A stretch of 62,222 bases of DNA. Origin: Actinomycetota bacterium (GTDB lineage: Bacteria > Actinomycetota > Actinomycetes > S36-B12 > UBA5976). A model generated the notes under the pieces. It was not told the origin of the DNA. It saw nothing but the letters and a program-made list of their open reading frames with translations, and did no database searches. The DNA is taken from positions 1 to 62,222 of the forward strand of contig CANFOW010000004.1 in assembly GCA_947448865.1 (NCBI GenBank), given 5' to 3'. The translations under genes and the position numbers were made by a program. Below are positions 2,868 to 38,079 of this stretch, one piece after another. Each line of letters opens with the position of its first letter. Positions within the stretch are counted from its first letter, which is position 1.

Positions 2868-3548
2868 CTAAACAATCGCCGTGTTCACTTCGTACGAAGG
2901 TTCATTAGCTTTGATCCAGGCAATGACTCGATAAGTTATCGGCAGCAGAACAACCTCAAGAAGAGTCTTGTAAACGTAACCAACGATGACATAGTTCAAG
3001 AAATCTTTTCCGGTCAAGATTCCGTAGAACGCAATTGTGCAAAAGGCAAGCGTGTCCGCGAATTCTCCGACGACGGTTGATCCGATGAGACGAAACCACA
3101 AAGCACTTTCTTGCGTTCGCTGTTTAATTTTTACCAACACATACGAGTTGAGAAGCTGGCCGACTAGGAACCCGCAGACGCTCGCTAAAACAATGCGTGG
3201 AACAAATCCCAGAATGGATTCGAATGCTGCCTGATTTTCCCAACCGGGAGCACTTGGTGAAAGTTGAATTGCATAGAAAGTCAGGGCCGAAAGAATAGCC
3301 ATGGCAAACCCAAGGAAAATTGTTCGACGAGCGGCTTTGAAACCGTAAACCTCGCTCAGTACGTCACCAGTGATGTACACAAGCGGAAAAAGGAATGCTC
3401 CACCGTCAACAATCAGGGGACCAAAAATTATTAATTTCGTTGCACCTACATTTGAAATGACTAGCAATGCGACAAACACGGCGCTGATGATTGGGTAAAT
3501 GCTGTTGGATGCTCGGGCGTAATGTGGCGCGCGTTCTGTTTGAGTCAT
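2868..3548 (-). CDS. yhhQ: Queuosine precursor transporter (YhhQ/Vut_1)
   Basis: GAFLFPLVYITGDVLSEVYG, PRIVLAS and STVVGEFADT motifs; adjacent to tgt. Confidence 0.9.
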   Translation of the reverse strand: MTQTERAPHYARASNSIYPIISAVFVALLVISNVGATKLIIFGPLIVDGGAFLFPLVYITGDVLSEVYGFKAARRTIFLGFAMAILSALTFYAIQLSPSAPGWENQAAFESILGFVPRIVLASVCGFLVGQLLNSYVLVKIKQRTQESALWFRLIGSTVVGEFADTLAFCTIAFYGILTGKDFLNYVIVGYVYKTLLEVVLLPITYRVIAWIKANEPSYEVNTAIV

Positions 3549-3580: not shown

Positions 3581-4807
3581 GTGAACAATGACGTCTTGCA
3601 AAAACACACTATTCGCACGCTGGCTATTACTCAGATTCTGACGGGAATTGGTGTTGTTTCTACAATTGCGGCCGGATCTTTGCTGGTGTCATCAATTTCC
3701 CACTCTGAATCGCTCGCGGGACTTGCCCAAACATTTAACGTTCTCGGCGCAGCCACTATGGCAATACCTCTTGCATCCCTGACTCACCGTGGTGGACGCC
3801 GCTTGGCGCTGTCCACTGGTTATGTCATTGCCACGATTGGTTCAATTAGCGCCATAATCGGCGGCAGTCACAGAATCTTATTTTTTATGCTGGCCGGGAC
3901 CTTCATGATCGGCGCTTCTTCAGCCGCTAACTACCAGTCACGGTTTGCCGCTGTTGATTTATCTCATCCTGAAAGTCGAGCACGAGACTTGTCGTTCGTT
4001 GTGTGGGCATCAACAATCGGCGCAGTGCTCGGCCCGAATCTCATGGCTCCTTTTGGAAGCATCGCGCCATACTTTGGCCTACCGCGCCTGACTGGGCCTT
4101 ACCTTTTGGCTGCAGTCATGCTTGGAATCGCCACTCTGAATGTCTGGTTTCGACTCAAGCCAGATCCCTATCTGACACACATCACACAAACGCACGGCGA
4201 GAATGTAAAGCCGCCTGCTCGACTGTCTGCACGAGTTGTATTAGCTCGAATGAAGAAATCTCCTCGTACCCTTTTGGGCTTAATGTCCATCGCTATTGGT
4301 CACCTGGCAATGGTGTCCATCATGGTGATGACACCAGTGCACATGTCACACGTTGATGTGAGTTTGAAAATTATTGGATTGGTCATCAGTGTTCACGTCG
4401 CTGGAATGTACGCCTTCTCGCCCATTGTCGGCAAGCTTGCTGATCGAATGGGACGCATTCGCGTTATCCAAATTGGAGCAGGCATCCTTTTATTGTCAGG
4501 ACTGATTGCCGGAACCGCAGATGCCGGAAATAGCGTGCAACTTGGCTGTGGGCTTTTCTTACTCGGTGTTGGATGGTCATGCACGTTGATTGCAGGCTCT
4601 ACCTTGCTCACTGAAACAATTGACGACGACATCCGAGCTAGTGCACAAGGAGCAACTGACTTAGTCATGAATCTGTGTGCAGCTGGTGGTGGTGCGCTCG
4701 CGGGATTAATTATCGCCACGCTGAGCTACGGATTCCTGTGTGCCTTCGTGTGTGTACCAGTAGCCTTCCTCGGCTATCGCGCTACGCGATTGGCTGCTGC
4801 TGCGTAA
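3581..4807 (+). CDS. MFS transporter
   Basis: About 12 hydrophobic segments, GKLADRMGR motif; GTG start 7 nt after TACTAT. Confidence 0.88.
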   Translation: MNNDVLQKHTIRTLAITQILTGIGVVSTIAAGSLLVSSISHSESLAGLAQTFNVLGAATMAIPLASLTHRGGRRLALSTGYVIATIGSISAIIGGSHRILFFMLAGTFMIGASSAANYQSRFAAVDLSHPESRARDLSFVVWASTIGAVLGPNLMAPFGSIAPYFGLPRLTGPYLLAAVMLGIATLNVWFRLKPDPYLTHITQTHGENVKPPARLSARVVLARMKKSPRTLLGLMSIAIGHLAMVSIMVMTPVHMSHVDVSLKIIGLVISVHVAGMYAFSPIVGKLADRMGRIRVIQIGAGILLLSGLIAGTADAGNSVQLGCGLFLLGVGWSCTLIAGSTLLTETIDDDIRASAQGATDLVMNLCAAGGGALAGLIIATLSYGFLCAFVCVPVAFLGYRATRLAAAA

Positions 4808-30095: not shown

Positions 30096-31073
30096 GTGCT
30101 GTCTAATGTCATTCCACTTTTTCTTGGGGTATGGACCATTTATAGTGCGACCAAATACCGATCACTGTTTGCACTCTCAATTACAACTGGACTCAAGAAC
30201 GGAGCGATTTACGCACTAATTGCTTTCGGCTTCGGACTGATTTACCACACCACTCAAAATCTTGACCTGGCTCATGGCGATGTGTTTATGTTGGGCACTG
30301 TCTCAACAGCCGTCATTCTTATTAACCATCTGAAGGCCGACAGCAACACACCGAGAAATTGGTTTCTACTTTCTTTGACGCTCATTCTCGTCGCAGGTAT
30401 CGGTGCAATCTTGAGTGCATCTACTGATCTGATTGTGTTTCGTCGCCTGCGCAAAGCAAATCGCATTGCCCCGCTGATTGCCTCGTTAGGCGTATCTCTA
30501 ATTTTGCAAGACATAGGAATAAAGGCAAACGGTTCTGGACCCAAGCGCTTTCATTCCATCATTCCTGAGGCACCGCCTTATGTCTCCATGAGTTCAGGAC
30601 TAGTTCACGCCGCGATAATTCTCAGTGTCGCTATCCCCAGTCTTGCAATGTGTTCCTACCTTGCAACACGTTCACACAACGGATTAGCGATTCAAGCTGT
30701 TGCTTACGACTACGAGACTTCACAACTCATGGGAATTAATGTGAATCGAACTATCACCAGAACATTCGTCATAGCCGGAGTGGCTGCAGGCATTGCGGGC
30801 GTGATTTACGCACAAGAGTTCCGAGTGTCTACTTATGCACTTGGAATGCATGTCGGACTGTTGGCATATGCAGGAGCAATCATTGGTGGCGTCAATCGAA
30901 TTTTGGGAACTGTTCTCGGTGGCTTTCTGATTGGTCTTATCGAAGCCCTCAGCGCAGGCGTGCCATCTGGCCTAGGCGGGCGCTGGAGTGAAACAGCAAT
31001 CTATTCCGTTTTCATCATGATGCTGGTGTATCGACCACACGGACTCTTTGGCTACAAAGACATCAATGAGTGA
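30096..31073 (+). CDS. livH: Branched-chain amino acid ABC permease (LivH-like), orphan
   Basis: GAIYALIA.G..L, AHGD.FM, LMGIN, IGG and RP.GLFG motifs; start uncertain. Confidence 0.75.
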   Translation: MLSNVIPLFLGVWTIYSATKYRSLFALSITTGLKNGAIYALIAFGFGLIYHTTQNLDLAHGDVFMLGTVSTAVILINHLKADSNTPRNWFLLSLTLILVAGIGAILSASTDLIVFRRLRKANRIAPLIASLGVSLILQDIGIKANGSGPKRFHSIIPEAPPYVSMSSGLVHAAIILSVAIPSLAMCSYLATRSHNGLAIQAVAYDYETSQLMGINVNRTITRTFVIAGVAAGIAGVIYAQEFRVSTYALGMHVGLLAYAGAIIGGVNRILGTVLGGFLIGLIEALSAGVPSGLGGRWSETAIYSVFIMMLVYRPHGLFGYKDINE

Positions 31074-31176: not shown

Positions 31177-31743
31177 TTAGTGCATGCCCTCAGCAGCGGC
31201 GTATGCAGAATCATCTGCTGCGCTCTTGAGGCGGGCGATCTTGTAAATAGTCAGACCGAATAGACACTTAGCAAGCACGTCGGCAACGGTGTAGCCAACT
31301 TGGCGTCCAACGAATGCTGATGCACCATCAAGGCCTAGAACTGGCATGAGGTACGAGATTGGGTAAACGCCCCATGTTGCAATAAGAAGCAGACGCAAAC
31401 GCTTAACGGTTGCGGATACTGCTGCTGGCTGCTTTTCTAGGGACTTGGTGAGCTCTACGAAAAGAATGTAGAGAATGAAGAGGAATGGGATTGTTGAAAG
31501 TGCACCCCACAGCATCTTCGGACCATTTTCAGACGCAACTTCACCTGGGTAACCGAGGATGATCATAAGCGCTGACGCTGGAACGAGGCGAGAAATGAGC
31601 GACTTACGCTCTGCGCCTGGAAGTGCAAGTACTGCGATTGTTTCAAGCAGCAACAGTGGAACAGTAAGTAACCAGTCAACATAACGGTATGCCTCGTTGA
31701 ATGATCCATCGCCACCATGTGCAGCAACAAATGAATCAAAGAC
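31177..31743 (-). pseudogene. actR: 5'-truncated actinorhodopsin/xanthorhodopsin-type proton-pump opsin (helices C-G only)
   Basis: RYVDWLLTVPLLLLE (DTE motif), WGVYP and DVLAK retinal Lys; recognisable similarity starts at FDSF, so helices A-B are missing. Confidence 0.88.
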
Positions 31744-31858
31744 ATTTATTGTCAATCTCAATCAAATATTCAAAACAAAATTTGTATCCAATCCTGAAAT
31801 TGCTTTGAGGCATGGATGTTTCCCCATATATTGAGAGGAATTCTGCAATTCAAATAAG

Positions 31859-32209
31859 TTATTTGACTTCGACTCGCAATATTTTTTCCATGGGACGACC
31901 TTTAGCAAGTTCATCAACCAATTTGTCGAGATATCGAATCTTGAGCATAAGTGGATCTTCAATTTCCTGAATTTTCACACCACAAATCGTTCCTGTGATT
32001 AACGATGCATTGGGATTGAGAGTTGCTGCTTTGAAGAAGTCAGTGAAATTCGTGTGGTTCTTAATATGTTGCAGTAATGACTTTTCGGAAAAGCCAGTAA
32101 GCCACTTAATCACGTCGTGAAGTTCACTGACGGTACGTCCCTTTTTCTCAACTTTCCTTACATAATGCGGATATACATCACTAAAAGGCATACTGAAAAT
32201 CTTGTGCAT
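31859..32209 (-). CDS. DUF2200 family protein
   Basis: VYPHYV.KVEKKGRT, ITG.ICGV and IRYLDKLVDELAKG motifs. Confidence 0.88.
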   Translation of the reverse strand: MHKIFSMPFSDVYPHYVRKVEKKGRTVSELHDVIKWLTGFSEKSLLQHIKNHTNFTDFFKAATLNPNASLITGTICGVKIQEIEDPLMLKIRYLDKLVDELAKGRPMEKILRVEVK

Positions 32210-32213
32210 GGTT

Positions 32214-32552
32214 CTAAGCATTTCCTTTGAACTTGCGAATTTCTTGTGGCCAACCGCATGCCATGCCTACCTTGGCGCCCCACATCTTCGCTTCATCATC
32301 TGTGTCCACATTGATAATGGTTAGACCGCCAAGGAACTCCCCTGTTGATGTAATCGGCCCACCGATTACTCCATTTTCATCTGAACCGAAAGCATGTTCA
32401 ATTTCTTCTTCAAGTCCACCGGCAAAAACGACTATGCCAGCTTCCTGCATTTCCTTAACAACTGCTCGAGCAAGTGGCCCTCGTGACTCAAACCATTCAG
32501 CACTGTGATCGCCGACCCATTGCTGGTTGAAATAAATAATGTAATTCGGCAC
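32214..32552 (-). CDS. YciI-family protein
   Basis: AG.VVFAGGL, GP..E.LGG.TII and EIR.F pattern; SD gaggag before GTG 32552. Confidence 0.78.
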   Translation of the reverse strand: MPNYIIYFNQQWVGDHSAEWFESRGPLARAVVKEMQEAGIVVFAGGLEEEIEHAFGSDENGVIGGPITSTGEFLGGLTIINVDTDDEAKMWGAKVGMACGWPQEIRKFKGNA

Positions 32553-32641
32553 GGGCGCTCCTCGTGAAATAAGTTTTATCAACTTTAAGGCTACATATGC
32601 GACATGTGTAACTTCGAAACTCGCAACGGCTAAATTGAGTT

Positions 32642-32926
32642 GTGGAGATTTGCGTCAAAGGAGAAGTTTGGCACTGGCGAGGTCCCTCACCTTTTCACTT
32701 CATCCGCACATCGCCAGCTGAAAGCGAAGAAATAAAGTTTCTCGCTGGACATCTGACTTACGGCTGGGGATGCATTCCGGCAACCGTTCGAATTGGTGAA
32801 ACGACTTTTACGACAGCGCTCATACCTAAGGACGGGATTTACCTCATCCCACTCAAAGCAGTCGTTCGCAATTCCGAAAATCTTGAAATTGGAACGCATA
32901 TCACTGCCACATTAAGTTTCACTTAA
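32642..32926 (+). CDS. DUF1905 family protein
   Basis: WHWRGPSPFHF, YGWG.IP and TTALIPKDG.YLIPLK motifs. Confidence 0.82.
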   Translation: MEICVKGEVWHWRGPSPFHFIRTSPAESEEIKFLAGHLTYGWGCIPATVRIGETTFTTALIPKDGIYLIPLKAVVRNSENLEIGTHITATLSFT

Positions 32927-32955
32927 GTAGACGAGTCGTTCTGTAAGCCGGATTC
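32925..32955 (-). repeat. Direct-repeat copy of the rnpB 3' end (distal att-like site)
   Basis: aagtagacgagtcgttctgtaagccggattc is 30/31 identical to 37702-37732. Confidence 0.92.
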
Positions 32956-33050
32956 CGAGTGGCGCTCAAGAAAACCATATCTCAAAGATGAAGTTATAAC
33001 TCTGCCCACGTTGTTGCCCATGAAGTCGTGCTTATTTTGCTACCAAGCAA

Positions 33051-33479
33051 CTAATCACGCACTTCCAGTTCCACAACCTCAATCCCCGAAATCACATCAG
33101 CTAACCTCTTGCCATCTTCTCTGCGCACTATCCCTGAAATGTCCGACAAGTGAAAGCAAACCAGCATAGTTATCCCGAGAGCAAGCAAGATTCCATTCGG
33201 ATTAATCGCATATGCAATGTTTGAAACTGCAAAATATCCAAACCAATAAGCCGTGAAAATCAAGAAGTAGAGGATAAACATTTGAGGACACTTTGCTGGA
33301 GCGTTCGTGGTGTCATTGATCGTAACTATGCGTAACAAGTTTTGAGCAGGCGTTTGTCCTCTCCCCCAGGTAATCAAACTCCAAACCAGCCAACCGATGT
33401 AGGCAGTTCCAATAACCAAAACTATTTCCAAAACCCAAGCCGTGAATCGCCTTGTGGGTTGCACTGGTGTCATGCTCAT
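33051..33479 (-). CDS. RDD-family membrane protein
   Basis: RRFTAWVLE, GQTP..LLRI and RLAD.I.G..VV motifs; ATG overlaps the upstream TGA (ATGA). Confidence 0.65.
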   Translation of the reverse strand: MSMTPVQPTRRFTAWVLEIVLVIGTAYIGWLVWSLITWGRGQTPAQNLLRIVTINDTTNAPAKCPQMFILYFLIFTAYWFGYFAVSNIAYAINPNGILLALGITMLVCFHLSDISGIVRREDGKRLADVISGIEVVELEVRD

Positions 33480-33988
33480 TTCTTCAGACTCGCTTTCGTT
33501 TCTGTGACAACTTCGTTGAGAATTTGGTTCCATGGGGTTGGCTGCATTCCAAACGTTTGTCGCGCAGCGCTGTCATCCAAAATGTAAGGGCGCTGCATTT
33601 GATATGCCGTTTCCTTGAGTGCGCGCATCAGAGGATTAAACAACGCAATCAAATTCCAAATAACGGTTGGAACACTCGAGAGCTTTGGATTTGAAACACC
33701 AGCTGTGGATGCTAGTTCACTTACAACTTCATTTTGAGTTTTTGCTTCATTGCTTGGGACATGCCAAGCCTTACCCCAAGCCCTTGAATCCGAAGCAACG
33801 ATCTTCATAAGTCGAGCAACATCTAGCGGATACGTCCACGTGTGCTTTAGATCAATCGCTCCCAGAACTTGCGCCGGTTTACCTGCGAGCACCTTTGGCA
33901 TAACGCGCGCACCAACACGACTTTGATCGCCAGCGCATACATAATCGGATCCTCGAACTTCAGTGGCCTTAATGATTCCGGCATTCAT
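33476..33988 (-). pseudogene. 3' fragment of an NAD-dependent epimerase/dehydratase
   Basis: VRGSDY..HTWTY..DVAR..AWGKAWHVP; N-terminal GxxGxxG Rossmann half is absent. Confidence 0.75.
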
Positions 33989-33989
33989 T

Positions 33990-34246
33990 TGTTTTGATTC
34001 TCCCGAACTCGAACCCGACTTCCCTAACCCGTGGAATTGTTGATGGACTCGCTTACAGAGTTGAATGAACTCGGCTGCCTTTCAGATAAGAACGTCAAAA
34101 CTGCTCCAATGATTGCTTGGAGCATGGTTCATGGCTTTGCAGGATTAGCCGCACAAGGTGCAACTGGTAACTCAAACGAAACTCTTGCTTCGAAAAAGGA
34201 TGTTCTTGCCGCAGTGCTGAAGTCGCTAGACATTAGAAACAACTAG
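33990..34246 (+). pseudogene. 3' fragment of a TetR regulator (WHG C-terminal domain), frameshifted
   Basis: AWSMVHGFA motif, no HTH; apparent 1-nt frameshift near 34031. Confidence 0.7.
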
Positions 34247-34590
34247 GAAAGATCTAGCCTTATGTCAAAGGCAACCATTGCGATTGCGATTCCAGCAGAC
34301 CAAAGCAACGTGCTAGCAATAATGAGCTTCGATGCTCGAAATGGCTTAACTCCTGCCGCAACAGATGCCATCGCGGCAATCTGAGTACCAATTAAAGCTG
34401 GAGCGGCTATCGCCATGCCATAGATCCCATACTTATCGAACATGCGAACGGCTTTTTCAAACTTAGGCGATTCACCAGTTTTACCTTTTGCTGCACGTCG
34501 CTTGATGATTCGATTGCGCATAGTCGAACTCAGATACGCGAAAACTACAATCGCAATTGCATCACCAATTACTGCAGCAATCACAGCCAA
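34243..34590 (-). pseudogene. 3' fragment of a small multidrug-export-like membrane protein
   Basis: FDKYG..G..IGT pattern; 5' end abuts an opposite-strand fragment. Confidence 0.55.
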
Positions 34591-34816
34591 CGCTGATCTT
34601 GAATTACGGTCAGCACCTAACTGTGGCGTGCTCTGTTGGCGTCACAAGAGCGTAAGCGTTGACGACATTAAGCGGCATCTTCCTGACGATGTAATGGTGT
34701 CAAGCACAACTATTAACGGCGAACCATGGCTCAGATCAGTTGCCGCAAACCCAAACGCAAACCCTGCCAAGGTTGTTGCGGGAGTAATACGAGCGGCTGA
34801 AAGAGCTCAGCGTTGA
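34591..34816 (+). pseudogene. 3' fragment of a group II PLP-dependent decarboxylase
   Basis: LEL..P..GVLCWR..VSSTTINGE.WLRSVAANP C-terminal pattern; no start codon. Confidence 0.6.
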
Positions 34817-34848
34817 GTTGGTCGGTAATACTTGCCATGAATTGACGA

Positions 34849-35949
34849 TTAGAGCCCGTGGATCCCAGCAGCCCGAGTAATGAGTCTGGCTTGAACCTCA
34901 GTCAAGGCCTGCTCTGGCAGGCGTTCGCGGTCTGGGCCATACGGGTCGTCGATATGTGTTTTAACGCCAGACATAGTCTCCAAAACTGCCAAGCCACAAT
35001 ATGGAACGTAAGTCGGTGAATAGCCACCTTCATGAGTCATCATGACCTTGCCGTCACACACTTCATCGGCCACCGCGAGCAGCAATTCAGTGAGCTGTCG
35101 ATAGCCAGATGCCGTCAGCAACATTCGACCAAGCGGATCAAAAGCACTTGCATCAAAACCCGATGGCACCACAATCACATCGGGATTAAACCTGCGGATA
35201 GCTGGCACGACAACTTTGATGAATGCCTCAACGTAGCCACCATTGCCCGAGGCGGCTGGCAATGGAATGTTTATAACTGAACCAGTCGCTGATTCATCAC
35301 CAACGTCGTCAATTAAGCCACTATTCATTGGATACAAGTTGTCTTGGTGAAGCGAAATGCATAACACGTTTGGATCCGAGTAGTAAATCTCTTGGGTGCC
35401 ATTGCCATGGTGTACATCCCAGTCGACAACTGCTACTCGCTTGACGCCCATAGTTGCTCGGACATTTTCAATCGCGATGGCAGCATTGGCAAAAATGCAA
35501 AATCCCATTCCGGTCGATGGTATGGAGTGATGGCCAGGTGGTCGCACTAACGCATACGCATTGTTAACGCTGCCGCCTACTACTGCACGCAATGCCTCAA
35601 TGGCGCCACCGGCTGCCAATGCTGCGATTTCGTAGCCACCATAACCAAACGGTGACTCTCCGTCGCCGGCGTCGCCACCTTTTGGATTGAGACTCTCAGC
35701 CTTGATGCGAGCAATGTGCGCGGCAGAGTGAACTCGCAAAATATCTTCTTCAGTTGCTGGCACGGCAGGAATGCGAACCAAGTCTTTAGCTAGTCCTGAC
35801 ACTTCAACTAATGACGCAAAACGAACTTTTGTTTCTGCGCTTTCAAAGTGTTGATACGGCTGCACTGTCGTACTTGGAAACACATGCCCCGCAAATGTTC
35901 CAGTGTCGTGCCAGCCATAAAGTTCTTCCCACACGTAACCAGTTGTCAT
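34849..35949 (-). CDS. Class II histone-deacetylase-like amidohydrolase
   Basis: RPPGHH, GFC, DWDVHHGNGTQ, GFD..DPLG and HEGGY motifs. Confidence 0.92.
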   Translation of the reverse strand: MTTGYVWEELYGWHDTGTFAGHVFPSTTVQPYQHFESAETKVRFASLVEVSGLAKDLVRIPAVPATEEDILRVHSAAHIARIKAESLNPKGGDAGDGESPFGYGGYEIAALAAGGAIEALRAVVGGSVNNAYALVRPPGHHSIPSTGMGFCIFANAAIAIENVRATMGVKRVAVVDWDVHHGNGTQEIYYSDPNVLCISLHQDNLYPMNSGLIDDVGDESATGSVINIPLPAASGNGGYVEAFIKVVVPAIRRFNPDVIVVPSGFDASAFDPLGRMLLTASGYRQLTELLLAVADEVCDGKVMMTHEGGYSPTYVPYCGLAVLETMSGVKTHIDDPYGPDRERLPEQALTEVQARLITRAAGIHGL

Positions 35950-36021
35950 GAGTGTGACTTTACAACTCTTAGCGGCGCTTAACCCTCCCCTTGAAAGGTT
36001 TGATCAACACGTCTTGAGCAG

Positions 36022-36050
36022 AAAGTAGACGAGTCGGTCTGTAAGCCGGA
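36022..36050 (-). repeat. Direct-repeat copy of the rnpB 3' end (proximal att-like site)
   Basis: aaagtagacgagtcggtctgtaagccgga is 29/29 identical to 37701-37729. Confidence 0.95.
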
Positions 36051-36100
36051 GACCTCAACAGCTGCTGTGTTGGCTCCCGCCGCCACACTTGTTGACGTTG

Positions 36101-37609
36101 CTATGGCGTTGGTTCGAGTCCGCGATCGCTAATTTTCCAGCCCTTATTATTTATCAGCGCATCGCGAGCGGCTTGTGCCCCAGAGCTGTAATAAGTAACT
36201 GGCGCATCTAACCGCACATCACTTTGCAGATTCGACACATTGCTATATAAAGCATTTAACAATGCGGAATAATTTGCAGTGGAAAAGGCTGAGGCACCAG
36301 TGAACATGCTGTCCATGAAAGTGACTTTAGATGTGTCCCAAGTACTGATGTTTTGGTTGAAGGCTGTCGCGCCGTTGAACATGTAGCCCATCCTGATTAC
36401 TTTAGACGTATTCCACGAACCGATGTTCTGATTAAAGACTGAGGCGCCGTTGAACATGCTGTTCATATTCTCGACCTTTGAGGTATTCCACGAACCGATG
36501 TTCTGGTTAAAGACTAAGGCGCTGTCGAACATGCTGTCCATATTCTCGACCTTTGACGTATTCCACGAACCGATGTTCTGATTAAAGCTTGGGGCGCCGA
36601 GGAACATGACGGCCATGTTGGTGACCTTAGATGTGTCCCACGCACTGATGTTCTGGTTAAAGACAGAGGCATATTGGAACATGCCGCGCATGTTGGTGAC
36701 CTTAGAAGTGTTCCATGGACTTATGTTCTGGTTAAAACGTGAGGCGAAGCTGAACATGTACGACATGTCGGTGACCTGAGACGTATTCCACGAACTGATA
36801 TCCTGATTAAACAATTCCGCGCCATCGAACATGTCCGACATGTTGGTAACTGAATTTGGAACTGTTGTCGGCACACTCGTTAGCGATGTAGCGCCGTAAA
36901 ATGCAGCCGAAAAGCTTGTCCAGTTTCCAAACCAGCTCGAAACGGATGTCAACTGCGAGACTCCCGCGAAGCTATAGGAATCGCCAAAAGTAAGACCGTC
37001 CGTACCCGAGAGGTAAGAAAAGATCACCGTCATGGGTACCGGTGAGGATTCAGAGTTTGTAAAATCACACGTCAGCACATTGGGGCATTTTGCGGGATCG
37101 TTATTCCACAGGACACTCGGCGTACCAGTCACACCAGAAATAGGCAAAGTCACCTTAGTTGTCGCAGATGCTGGAAGAGAAAAATTGAGAGTCATCGAGG
37201 TAACAATGTAAGGGGCCGCTCCAGCGACATACGTCACCTTTGCACTAGCCGGACCAAATCCTTTTTTGTTTTTCGATTTTGCGAACACGGAAACAGTCTT
37301 GCCATTCCTAATTGACTTAACTGTGCACGACGTTTTGGTTTTCTTAATCGTGCACGACTTACCACCCGCAGTTACCGTGCTGCCAGTAATCGTTGAGCCA
37401 CCGTTATTTGTAGGCAACACGACAGTCACTGTGAGGTTGACTTTCCCCTTTTTAGGAGTCGAAGAAACAATCGACACCACGGTTGGCGCCGACGGCTTTG
37501 CAATCTTTACTTTTGTGGGAAGACTAGTTACTGAAAGAGCCCTAGAGGGAGCAGCTGCAACGCCAGCAGCAAGCAACAACATGGTCACAAGAATAAGAAA
37601 TTTACGCAC
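36101..37609 (-). CDS. Secreted DUF285/BspA-type surface repeat protein with N-terminal Fn3-like domain
   Basis: Signal peptide; Lys-rich beta domain (P.AP...NGGS.IT..TV..N..G.GP); about 7.5 repeats of WNTSKVxNMxxMFxxAxxFNQNIxx. Confidence 0.88.
36290..36860 (-). repeat. 75-bp (25-aa) tandem coding repeats
   Basis: Recurring gtattccacgaaccgatgttctg(a/g)ttaaa with 75-nt period; boundaries approximate. Confidence 0.85.
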
Positions 37610-37705
37610 GGTCGGGACTCCTCAAAAATCACAATGTTTAACAGTACTGAAAATGCTCCAAGAAATGGTTCGTTTCGTGATTTACCGTTGCTTAATAGGC
37701 AAAGT

Positions 37706-38079
37706 AGACGAGTCGGTCTGTAAGCCGGATTCTGTACGCTTGCGCGTGATGATCATCCATCTGCGATTGCTGTTGCCAGCAACCTGTTGCAACCTACCCG
37801 CAGGCTGATAGCGGGCCGCTACCTGCGTCAGACCCGAAGGTCCTCTTGGTCTTGCTCCGAGTGGGGTTTACCTAGCCGCTCATGTCACCATGTGCGCTGG
37901 TGGTCTCTTACACCACCGTTTCACCCTGACCTAGCTACGCTTGCGCGAAACTAGGCGGTCTACTTTCTGTTGCACTTTCCCGTGGGTCACCCCAGGTGGA
38001 CGTTATCCACCACTCTTGCCCTATGGAGTCCGGACTTTCCTCGAACATTGCTGCCCGCGATCATCCGACCGACTCGTCT
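37706..38079 (-). ncRNA. rnpB: RNase P RNA (type A)
   Basis: Reverse complement has GAGGAAAGUCCGG and ACAGAAUCCGGCUUA; terminal P1 helix agacgagtcggtc/gaccgactcgtct; -10 TATCCT just upstream. Confidence 0.97.

Follow-up and report, generated by a model that had tools for sequence, protein, structure and literature searches.

Repeated 3′ ends of rnpB bound an additive array of small, integrase-less gene cassettes in a genus of freshwater actinobacteria

Introduction

What stacks unrelated genes behind an RNA gene when no integrase lies beside them? The question is raised by rnpB, the gene for RNase P RNA, and the DNA downstream of it in a 62,222-nt stretch from an Actinomycetota bacterium (GTDB lineage Bacteria; Actinomycetota; Actinomycetes; S36-B12; UBA5976; assembly GCA_947448865.1, contig CANFOW010000004.1, positions 1 to 62,222), hereafter called the window. 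A preliminary description, made from the sequence alone, noted that the 3′ end of rnpB recurs twice behind the gene and proposed that a family of elements, or of cassettes mobilized in trans, targets rnpB. We compared the locus with relatives, metagenome contigs, and mobile DNA, and conclude that the array is probably an additive island, formed by serial, integrase-type site-specific insertion at rnpB with a recombinase from elsewhere and then altered by deletion and core-to-core rearrangement. Genomes, contigs, and loci are given by our labels G, C, and L.

Results

Three direct copies of the rnpB 3′ end in the window

Four features define the locus:

37705-38076, minus strand: rnpB, class A RNase P RNA, full length (cmscan, RF00010, 301.6 bits, E 1e-97, model positions 1-367)
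37701-37732, minus strand: repeat copy 1, the genuine rnpB 3′ end (repeat search, core alignment)
36022-36050, minus strand: repeat copy 2, a displaced rnpB 3′ end (29/29 vs. copy 1)
32925-32955, minus strand: repeat copy 3, a displaced rnpB 3′ end, attR-like, followed by the ancestral flank (30/31)

A repeat search of the window returned a single direct-repeat family with three members (32925-32955, 36023-36053, and 37702-37732). Direct reading gave the figures first reported: 36022-36050 equals 37701-37729 at 29 of 29 positions, and 32925-32955 differs from 37702-37732 by one base. The copies start 1679 and 3098 bp apart and enclose segments of about 1.65 kb and about 3.07 kb. A 26-mer of the repeat matched the window three times (0, 0, and 1 mismatch), and none of 100 dinucleotide shuffles gave any match; the three copies are also all the copies in the 1.75-Mb, 105-contig assembly. 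Within copy 1 the 22-nt core lies at 37707-37728 and a conserved block of about 24 nt at 37706-37729. In the cmscan alignment the repeat begins in ...ACAGAAUCCGGCUUA... (model positions ~337-351, which we take to be the 3′ strand of CR-V/P4), with its left edge at ...ACAGAAU|CCGGCUUA..., and extends across the P1 3′ strand as far as the RNA's 3′ terminus, in agreement with the earlier statement that the repeats take in the P1 strand. The 3′ end of rnpB is placed as the regenerated, attL-like attachment site.

Repeats in a draft assembly of 105 contigs might arise from assembly or binning, and many contigs of relatives end at rnpB. Public Logan contigs were placed on the window (contigs, not reads). 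Two runs from another study, X5 and X6, matched it with 0-1 differences, X5 over 34331-36434 and 32447-33530 and X6 over 35164-36282. Copy 2 is bridged by contigs from both runs and copy 3 by X5; for the rnpB-proximal copy, no Logan contig spans it with 31 nt on each side. Because independent contigs bridge both displaced copies, the three-copy observation is real and not an artefact of one assembly, and the same architecture occurs in many independent genomes and metagenome contigs (see below). The probability that we assign to an artefact is practically negligible. The relatives are all metagenome-assembled genomes (MAGs) or draft genomes, and many genomes of the family have rnpB no more than a few hundred bases from where a contig stops (e.g., G009:C12:133-505, G065:C19:84-446, G054:C106:12-353, and G082:C45:58-411). 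Assemblies thus frequently break at this locus, as they would be expected to do at an island that bears repeats or varies within the population.

Empty site, added cassette, and interchangeable units in relatives

Ninety-three genomes of the family were scanned with the 22-mer at ≤2 mismatches, and 36 of them contained matches. The genus is represented by 41 genomes, the window's own (G000) included; 18 hold 2-6 matches, 13 hold one, and 10 none. In 16 of the multi-match genomes the matches share a contig and all lie on the same strand, and in G066 and G072 the second match is on another contig. A search with each genome's own rnpB 22-mer added one displaced copy each in G091 and G067. Displaced copies downstream of rnpB, one to five per genome, are thus present in at least 20 of the 41 species-level genomes of the genus. 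In G088, rnpB and five displaced copies extend across 9.5 kb, and freshwater metagenome contigs carry arrays of up to six copies. Record labels assign several array contigs to MAGs of Actinomycetota or 'Candidatus Nanopelagicales'. Wherever a fetched locus includes rnpB, its additional copies are found downstream, in the orientation of the gene.

Throughout the genus the upstream side of rnpB is syntenic and the downstream side a mosaic, with rnpB itself 82-97% identical. An empty site was found in G080, where a single copy, that of rnpB, is directly followed by homologues of DUF1905, YCII, and DUF2200; relative to the window, an empty-site junction would read rnpB core and then TACTTAAGTG... 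In G064, whose rnpB is 96.8% identical to that of the window, the order is rnpB, a 589-bp cassette, a core, and a DUF285 cassette whose start has the sequence seen in the window. Downstream content thus differs among relatives, from the empty site of G080 and the extra 589-bp cassette of G064 to other cassettes in other species. The extra unit of G064 is rnpB-proximal, which agrees with the preliminary proposal that the newest cassette stands first, on one close comparison only.

Several units recur beside differing neighbours, with their boundaries at cores. A 525-bp DinB cassette takes second place in G088 and first place in G056, and stands between two other units in locus L070; the units behind a 1199-bp aminotransferase cassette differ between G088 and G053; and a decarboxylase unit was found behind three different units. 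One 2957-bp contig (L098) with two cores and the DinB cassette, in a context identical to the actinobacterial arrays, is filed under a Flavobacterium sp. MAG and is probably mis-binned.

A constant 24-nt block and small cassettes

The conserved block comprises about 24 nt, T-CCGGCTTACAGACCGACTCGTC-T, i.e., the 22-nt core with one T at either end. Over 44 unique displaced copies the block is ~90-100% conserved and the flanks are at background; 30 of the 44 cores have no mismatch. In 17 loci we counted 33 bounded cassettes (genome and metagenome records, not de-duplicated) of 309-5198 bp, with a median of 829 bp, and 21 of the 33 contain a single open reading frame (ORF) of ≥60 aa. Orientation of the cassette ORFs is mixed, 37 in the sense of rnpB and 21 opposite.

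The predicted cargo consists of ordinary accessory genes. Pfam analysis of 30 representative ORFs gave DinB_2, DUF418, pyridoxal phosphate (PLP)-dependent decarboxylase, aminotransferase, SnoaL, SRPBCC/AHSA1, DUF1801, DUF1761, molybdopterin oxidoreductase, MarR, TetR, GntR, DoxX, SDR, glyoxalase, a glutamine-synthetase-like protein, an ABC transporter, ArsP permease, and similar families, and no family for four of the 30. Neither these ORFs nor the window's own matched a recombinase, transposase, or phage family in Pfam.

The breadth of the phenomenon was assessed by searching the fetched sequence downstream of each rnpB with the genome's own 3′ 22-mer. Two of four examined genomes of genus g3 have displaced copies of the host's own variant (G025 at +2488; G024 at +504 and +824), and in G091 (genus g1, variant core) the displaced copy likewise follows the host's own rnpB. 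Displaced copies were not found in the examined regions, many of them cut to 0.1-3 kb by contig ends, of genera g2 (0/15), g4 (0/11), g5 (0/5), g6 (0/1), and g7 (0/3). Contig C69 of G073 (L166; 60-81 and 714-735) carries two displaced cores of a variant, ..CTTATAGACC.. (..TATAG..), unlike that genome's own rnpB core. This would be expected if cores travel with cassettes, here imported from a lineage that has the variant; mis-binning of the contig is another possibility. Natural variants of the core comprise CCCG..., ...TATAG..., and ...AGAACG....

An integrase-bearing element at the same core in other actinobacteria

One metagenome scan and one genome-collection scan, restricted to copies whose -3 position is unlike that of genuine rnpB (non-A), returned the low-GC arrays and also high-GC contigs with the identical 22-nt core outside rnpB. 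In the cultured Pseudonocardia kongjuensis JCM 11896 (contig C4), rnpB ends at 402993, its core lies at 402972-402993, and an identical displaced core lies at 411701-411722. An 8.7-kb pSAM2-type element (L109, G093:C4:402400-412400) occupies the space between the two cores and is thus inserted in the rnpB 3′ end. It encodes GntR, WhiB, FtsK/SpoIIIE, a pSAM2-type RepSA (338.7 bits), and a 451-aa tyrosine integrase (PF00589; L109:7919-9274) whose frame ends ~30 bp before the displaced core. The same order of integrase and then core is seen in Nakamurella endophytica, where the displaced rnpB end and the integrase are on a different contig from rnpB, and in metagenome locus L080. A related integrase also adjoins a displaced core in metagenome contigs L065/L085, an integrase fragment lies ~0.7 kb past the core in high-GC actinobacteria (L065:3077-3400, L101:4400-4723), and the Pseudonocardia locus has a decayed one further downstream.

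The left edge of identity at the attachment (att) site, AT|CCGG, is the same in P. kongjuensis and in the low-GC arrays. An rnpB-end att site beside an integrase, which the preliminary description had named as something to look for, is thus present, and comparison of these loci indicates that Actinomycetota have integrases that are specific for the rnpB 3′ end and share their core with the low-GC arrays. With RepSA, FtsK/SpoIIIE, GntR, and Int beside an identical 22-nt rnpB core, the P. kongjuensis element resembles actinomycete integrative and conjugative elements (AICEs) of the pSAM2 type. Classical AICEs use tRNA genes. The window array differs from an AICE in that it lacks this set of genes, none of which was found at rnpB in the genus.

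Search for the recombinase and observations that weigh against serial insertion

Matches to PF00589 were found in 40 of the 41 genomes of the genus, mostly as a pair of Xer-like proteins of 306-330 aa. There are none on the window's contig, and the three matches in its own genome are on C8, C40, and C66. Serine recombinases (PF00239) gave no match in any of the 41 genomes, and rve, DDE_Tnp_1, and IS110 gave none in the window's own genome (88% complete), the transposase families scanned being these three. Within that scope, the reported lack of an integrase or transposase in the window holds. A few larger integrases occur in the genus (G072, G063, G062, G074, and G052) and lie beside tRNA-Met, tRNA-Lys, or tRNA-Arg where an RNA gene was detectable; G052 showed no tRNA. 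Two tyrosine recombinases of ~310 aa, of Xer-like size, lie 5-6 kb downstream of rnpB in genus g2 (L130, L142), in genomes without arrays.

A number of results speak against serial insertion by an integrase. No PF00589 match lies on the rnpB-array contigs of G000, G064, G088, G053, G056, G062, and G082, and phmmer with integrase queries gave no match in the low-GC array loci of the genus and the metagenomes. Near the larger integrases of the genus no core-like site was found within 6 mismatches. Viral contigs gave no exact match to a 22-mer or 18-mer of the core, and blastn of the 43-nt rnpB end against phage and plasmid collections returned only weak partial matches, none convincing. No circular or cassette-skipping joints at cores were seen among the Logan contigs, which say nothing on rare forms. 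Since the MAGs are fragmented and contigs end at rnpB, elements may have been lost in assembly. In G057 (L150, G057:C6:17571-27933; 2968-3332) the 3′ ~165 nt of rnpB recur in degenerate form, with ~87% identity (30.6 bits when scored against the full model), 2.6 kb downstream of the genuine gene. YCII, DUF418-like, and Fic/DOC-like genes separate the two, and another Fic/DOC-like gene comes after the second copy. This fragment is far longer than the 24-nt block and points to a different crossover point or to homologous recombination. Finally, core decay is non-monotonic along long arrays: mismatches in the displaced cores, in order from rnpB, are 0,2,2,0,0 in G088, 0,1,1,2,0 in L062, and 1,0,1,2 in L073, which is not what a strict model of insertion next to rnpB without later rearrangement predicts. 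The age gradient that had been proposed is therefore seen in the window and does not hold as a rule. These counts imply that cores must also rearrange with one another, or that whole blocks are imported.

The last two observations would also be expected if the arrays had been made by homologous recombination only, with rnpB as the RecA anchor for imported DNA and the short cores as a micro-homologous second anchor. The 165-nt fragment of G057 is of the kind that a Campbell-type insertion leaves, rnpB is 82-97% identical across the genus, and the streamlined genomes lack mobile-element enzymes of the families scanned. Yet such recombination leaves unexplained how an rnpB end came to be attached to each unrelated gene. 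It does not account either for the sharp, constant edges of the identity block in the 44 unique copies, or for the use of the same block, with the same left edge, by an integrase-bearing element. About 24 nt is, moreover, near the lower limit for RecA exchange. Homologous recombination as the only cause is in our view improbable; as a contributor, it may explain the reshuffling and the G057 fragment.

The Xer-like pair found in nearly all genomes of the genus, which have no other general recombinase, could instead act on the rnpB block itself, as host XerC/XerD do for an integrative mobile element exploiting Xer (IMEX). A candidate dif site was located at G000:C9:14872-14891 (L111; ...AACCGATAA GATACA TTATGTCAACT...). 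It occurs (as ...CCGATAA GATACA TTATGTCAAC...) once per genome and is identical in five of five genus genomes searched. Compared by eye, its sequence ...CCGATAAGATACATTATGTCAAC... is unlike the rnpB block TCCGGCTTACAGACCGACTCGTCT, with no similarity in arms or spacer, and the block has no dif-like inverted arms. An IMEX or dif module was rejected on this comparison, and insertion dependent on Xer is very improbable.

Some further loci came to light in the searches of mobile DNA. A plasmid record of Phocaeicola massiliensis (OY726028.1, 21 kb) has a 24/25 match to the rnpB 3′ end at 4437-4461 (query positions 6-30, most of the core), which might be the att site of a Bacteroidota element aimed at rnpB. 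Several of the weak matches come from records of megabase size that are catalogued as plasmids, and these may be chromosomal rnpB genes. On viral contigs, relatives of the rnpB-specific integrase (three loci, 37-46% identity) were considered and set aside, having neither an rnpB-like att site nor an adjoining tRNA. The contig joints that did appear among the Logan contigs lie inside rnpB or the rhodopsin fragment (see below) and are probably from other organisms.

Cassettes and cargo of the window

The segments bounded by the three copies, and the flank behind them, contain the following features:

36051-37700: cassette 1, one gene, ~1.65 kb (comparison with relatives)
36101-37609, minus strand: cargo of cassette 1, intact gene for a 502-aa secreted DUF285 (BspA-like) repeat protein (ORF; PF03382, E 4e-91)
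32956-36021: cassette 2, composite, ~3.07 kb (comparison with relatives)
34849-35949, minus strand: intact gene for a 366-aa protein of the histone deacetylase family, acetylpolyamine amidohydrolase-like (PF00850, E 2e-83)
34812-34848: decayed junction, core no longer recognizable (alignment with G053, L060, and L062; nhmmer)
34590-34816, plus strand: 3′-terminal fragment of a PLP-dependent decarboxylase gene (clusters with L062:3291-4490; PF00282)
34243-34590, minus strand: ORF for a 115-aa membrane protein (DNA comparison; weak VTT-domain similarity)
34031-34246, plus strand: TetR-family regulator, reduced to its C-terminal 71 aa (the complete protein of G088 has 229 aa)
33476-33988, minus strand: NAD-dependent epimerase, reduced to its C-terminal 170 aa (the protein of G088 has 322 aa)
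33051-33533, minus strand: gene for a 160-aa RDD-family membrane protein, nearest to the distal core here and in cassette 5 of G088
31859-32926: ancestral downstream flank, colinear with the sequence directly after rnpB in G080
32642-32926, plus strand: DUF1905, ancestral flank
32214-32582, minus strand: YCII-like, ancestral flank
31859-32221, minus strand: DUF2200, ancestral flank

The opening sequence of cassette 1 is that of the second cassette of G064. Comparison with relatives shows cassette 2 to comprise at least two older cassettes, with the boundary between them eroded and genes truncated: sequence that adjoins an intact core elsewhere has no recognizable core in the window. Sequence homologous to the region at 34812-34848 starts right behind an intact core in G053 and in metagenome loci L060 and L062, and the complete decarboxylase of L062 has 399 aa. 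A profile of 64 core copies (nhmmer) found no further degenerate core in the window; besides the three copies, it matched only the complement of the rnpB 5′ end. The DNA of the 115-aa ORF is 91-92% identical to genes located kilobases downstream of rnpB in G062 and G063. Cassette 5 of G088 has, in its distal 2 kb, a homologue of the TetR, epimerase, and RDD block, and a deletion of ~836 bp relative to G088 took the 5′ ends of the epimerase and TetR genes.

Within the DUF285 gene, eight 75-nt (25-codon) tandem repeat units lie at 36284-36850, 71-88% identical to the reference unit. Just past the array, a 194-aa ORF of the bacteriorhodopsin family (31177-31761, minus strand) covers profile positions 62-220 of 224 only, its N-terminal part missing. 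G+C content falls to 0.37 beside it (31750-32249), and an apparently orphan LivH-type permease gene is located at 30096-31073. The rhodopsin fragment, the low-G+C stretch, and the LivH-type gene may be still older, eroded island content.

A second additive island was observed in the same genome at tRNA-Met (G000:C36:15204-15279), the sole gene among 40 tRNA and transfer-messenger RNA (tmRNA) genes with displaced 3′ fragments, of which it has four:

C3:16-37, C20:19654-19675, C66:113-134, and C66:5245-5266: displaced 3′ fragments of tRNA-Met, own genome

The two fragments on contig C66 bound a 5.1-kb unit with a gene for a dynamin-like GTPase and a 560-aa ORF that joins the C-terminal remnant of an integrase to UvrD_C and PD-(D/E)XK nuclease domains.

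Decay of this kind fits another explanation of the rnpB arrays, namely that the cassettes are not mobile themselves and are stripped remnants of complete integrative elements (AICE-, prophage-, or tycheposon-like) that lost their integration and replication genes. Complete integrase-bearing elements do occupy the same core in high-GC actinobacteria, an integrase fragment lies ~0.7 kb past the core there, cassette 2 of the window is heavily deleted (836-bp internal loss, lost core), and the tRNA-Met island holds an integrase remnant. However, none of the 33 bounded cassettes or their flanks contains an integrase fragment, and units as short as 309-590 bp have perfect cores on both sides. Random erosion should also not yield the same single-gene units, with the same ends, beside differing neighbours across species. 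We consider an origin by stripping unlikely.

Discussion

The rnpB locus carries the marks of integrase insertion: a regenerated gene, direct displaced 3′ ends, an ancestral flank after the last copy, and an empty site in a relative, together with a sharp identity block that is also used by a bona fide integrative element. In the serial insertion that we favour, an incoming circular DNA would carry its own copy of the rnpB end. Recombination of the tyrosine-integrase type would rebuild a complete rnpB from the incoming copy and shift the former 3′ end, together with all that follows it, one step downstream. At least three such insertions in the window would have brought in the DUF285 cassette, the histone deacetylase family cassette, and one or more older, now eroded cassettes. 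Because the units, for the most part single accessory genes, carry no recombinase themselves, the enzyme would have to come from elsewhere, probably from a rare or transient integrase-bearing element. Later recombination between cores would result in cassette loss and reshuffling. That an integrase made the arrays, that it acts in trans, and that insertion takes place at the rnpB-proximal site are three points that we infer. Of the preliminary proposal of elements or in-trans cassettes targeting rnpB, the additive array stood and proved general in the genus; mobilization in trans is one of these inferred points, with no integrase at the low-GC arrays. None of the three observations that the preliminary description had named as refuting it was made.

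Integrons are additive arrays at a fixed site, mostly of small single-ORF accessory cassettes that are reshuffled between arrays and share a uniform orientation; they are defined by intI, attI, and Pc, and by variable, imperfectly palindromic attC sites. The rnpB array is similar in its fixed site, its mostly single-ORF units (21 of 33), and its reshuffled small accessory cargo, but its sites are constant ~24-nt copies of a host gene end instead of attC, and its ORFs face both ways (37 vs. 21). With no tyrosine recombinase on the contig, rnpB as the neighbour of the array, and these constant sites, an integron was rejected. An integron-like form of cassette capture, in which the rnpB 3′ end is the fixed acceptor, each cassette carries a 24-nt rnpB-derived site, and the recombinase is encoded far from the array, perhaps outside the chromosome, is put forward tentatively, as a possibility that falls well short of probable.

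Islands at the 3′ ends of tRNA and tmRNA genes (Islander-type; Dehalococcoides ssrA), as far as the accessible parts of the sources describe them (PMC4383910, PMC3146451), share with the rnpB array a 3′ target in an essential gene for a structured RNA, regeneration of that gene, direct displaced 3′ fragments at the unit ends, and stacking at one site. The rnpB array has the intact target and the displaced fragment followed by the ancestral flank; an integrase inside the island is not found in it and is found in P. kongjuensis, Nakamurella, and L080. It differs from such islands in its target, rnpB, in having no integrase inside, and in its mostly single-gene units of 0.3-1.3 kb. The departure from classical islands lies in these integron-sized, mostly single-gene, interchangeable units, with no integrase in 33 of 33.

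In the available part of a report on 'Ca. Methylopumilus', which names no integrase, segments of 330 bp-42 kb in a flexible genomic island, fGI-2, come after repeats of the final 20 bp of tRNA-Lys (PMC10872708). As described there, this is likewise a streamlined freshwater plankton lineage in which the last ~20 nt of an RNA gene recur beside variable segments, the target being tRNA-Lys vs. rnpB here. It is the closest description that we found, and the rnpB array belongs with the additive flexible genomic islands: the same RNA-gene site has differing content among relatives, and copies of the RNA 3′ end stand between segments. Tycheposons of Prochlorococcus, in the part of the preprint at hand (bioRxiv 10.1101/2020.12.28.424599), are tandem elements with partial target copies between them, in which newcomers push older elements distally and degenerate remnants are left; they too form islands beside RNA genes in a streamlined, abundant plankton lineage. 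In contrast to the rnpB array, they have their own recombinase and replication/packaging genes and use six tRNAs and tmRNA. The terms 'rnpB' and 'RNase P' do not occur in the text of that preprint that was available. A tycheposon was rejected for our array, as no element recombinase or replication/packaging module was found among the 30 representative ORFs and the window's own and the target is rnpB.

The only rnpB-inserted element that our literature search found is a presumed phage-inducible chromosomal island (PICI) which, according to the part of the source seen, splits rnpB in Clostridium novyi sensu lato (PMC8473940). It is also an integrative element in the RNase P RNA gene, but a satellite-like one of a Firmicute, with phage-related genes and, in the part seen, no mention of a cassette array. 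The search returned no use of rnpB as an integration site in actinobacteria or by AICEs, and nothing that links Nanopelagicales with RNase P; a Nanopelagicales study describes additive islands 'flanked by tRNAs', and its main text does not mention rnpB or RNase P (PMC12817590). The rnpB array is most like an integron-style additive array grafted onto an RNA-gene integration mechanism, and is not an integron, a tycheposon, or an IMEX. What is new is that a ribozyme gene, rnpB, and not a tRNA gene, is the acceptor of an additive island, with integron-sized, integrase-less single-gene units.

The pattern occurs in about half of the species of the genus (labelled Ca. Nanopelagicales) and in lake metagenomes. 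It provides a defined 24-bp site, natural cassettes, and a candidate enzyme family, the rnpB-specific Int of a culturable Pseudonocardia, and rnpB is one more site for island-finding software to scan. Streamlined plankton bacteria have large pangenomes and almost no classical mobile elements, and the route by which they gain genes is an open question. If integron-like capture at rnpB is true, it would give an abundant freshwater lineage, otherwise without transposases and serine recombinases, a route for gaining and shuffling genes.

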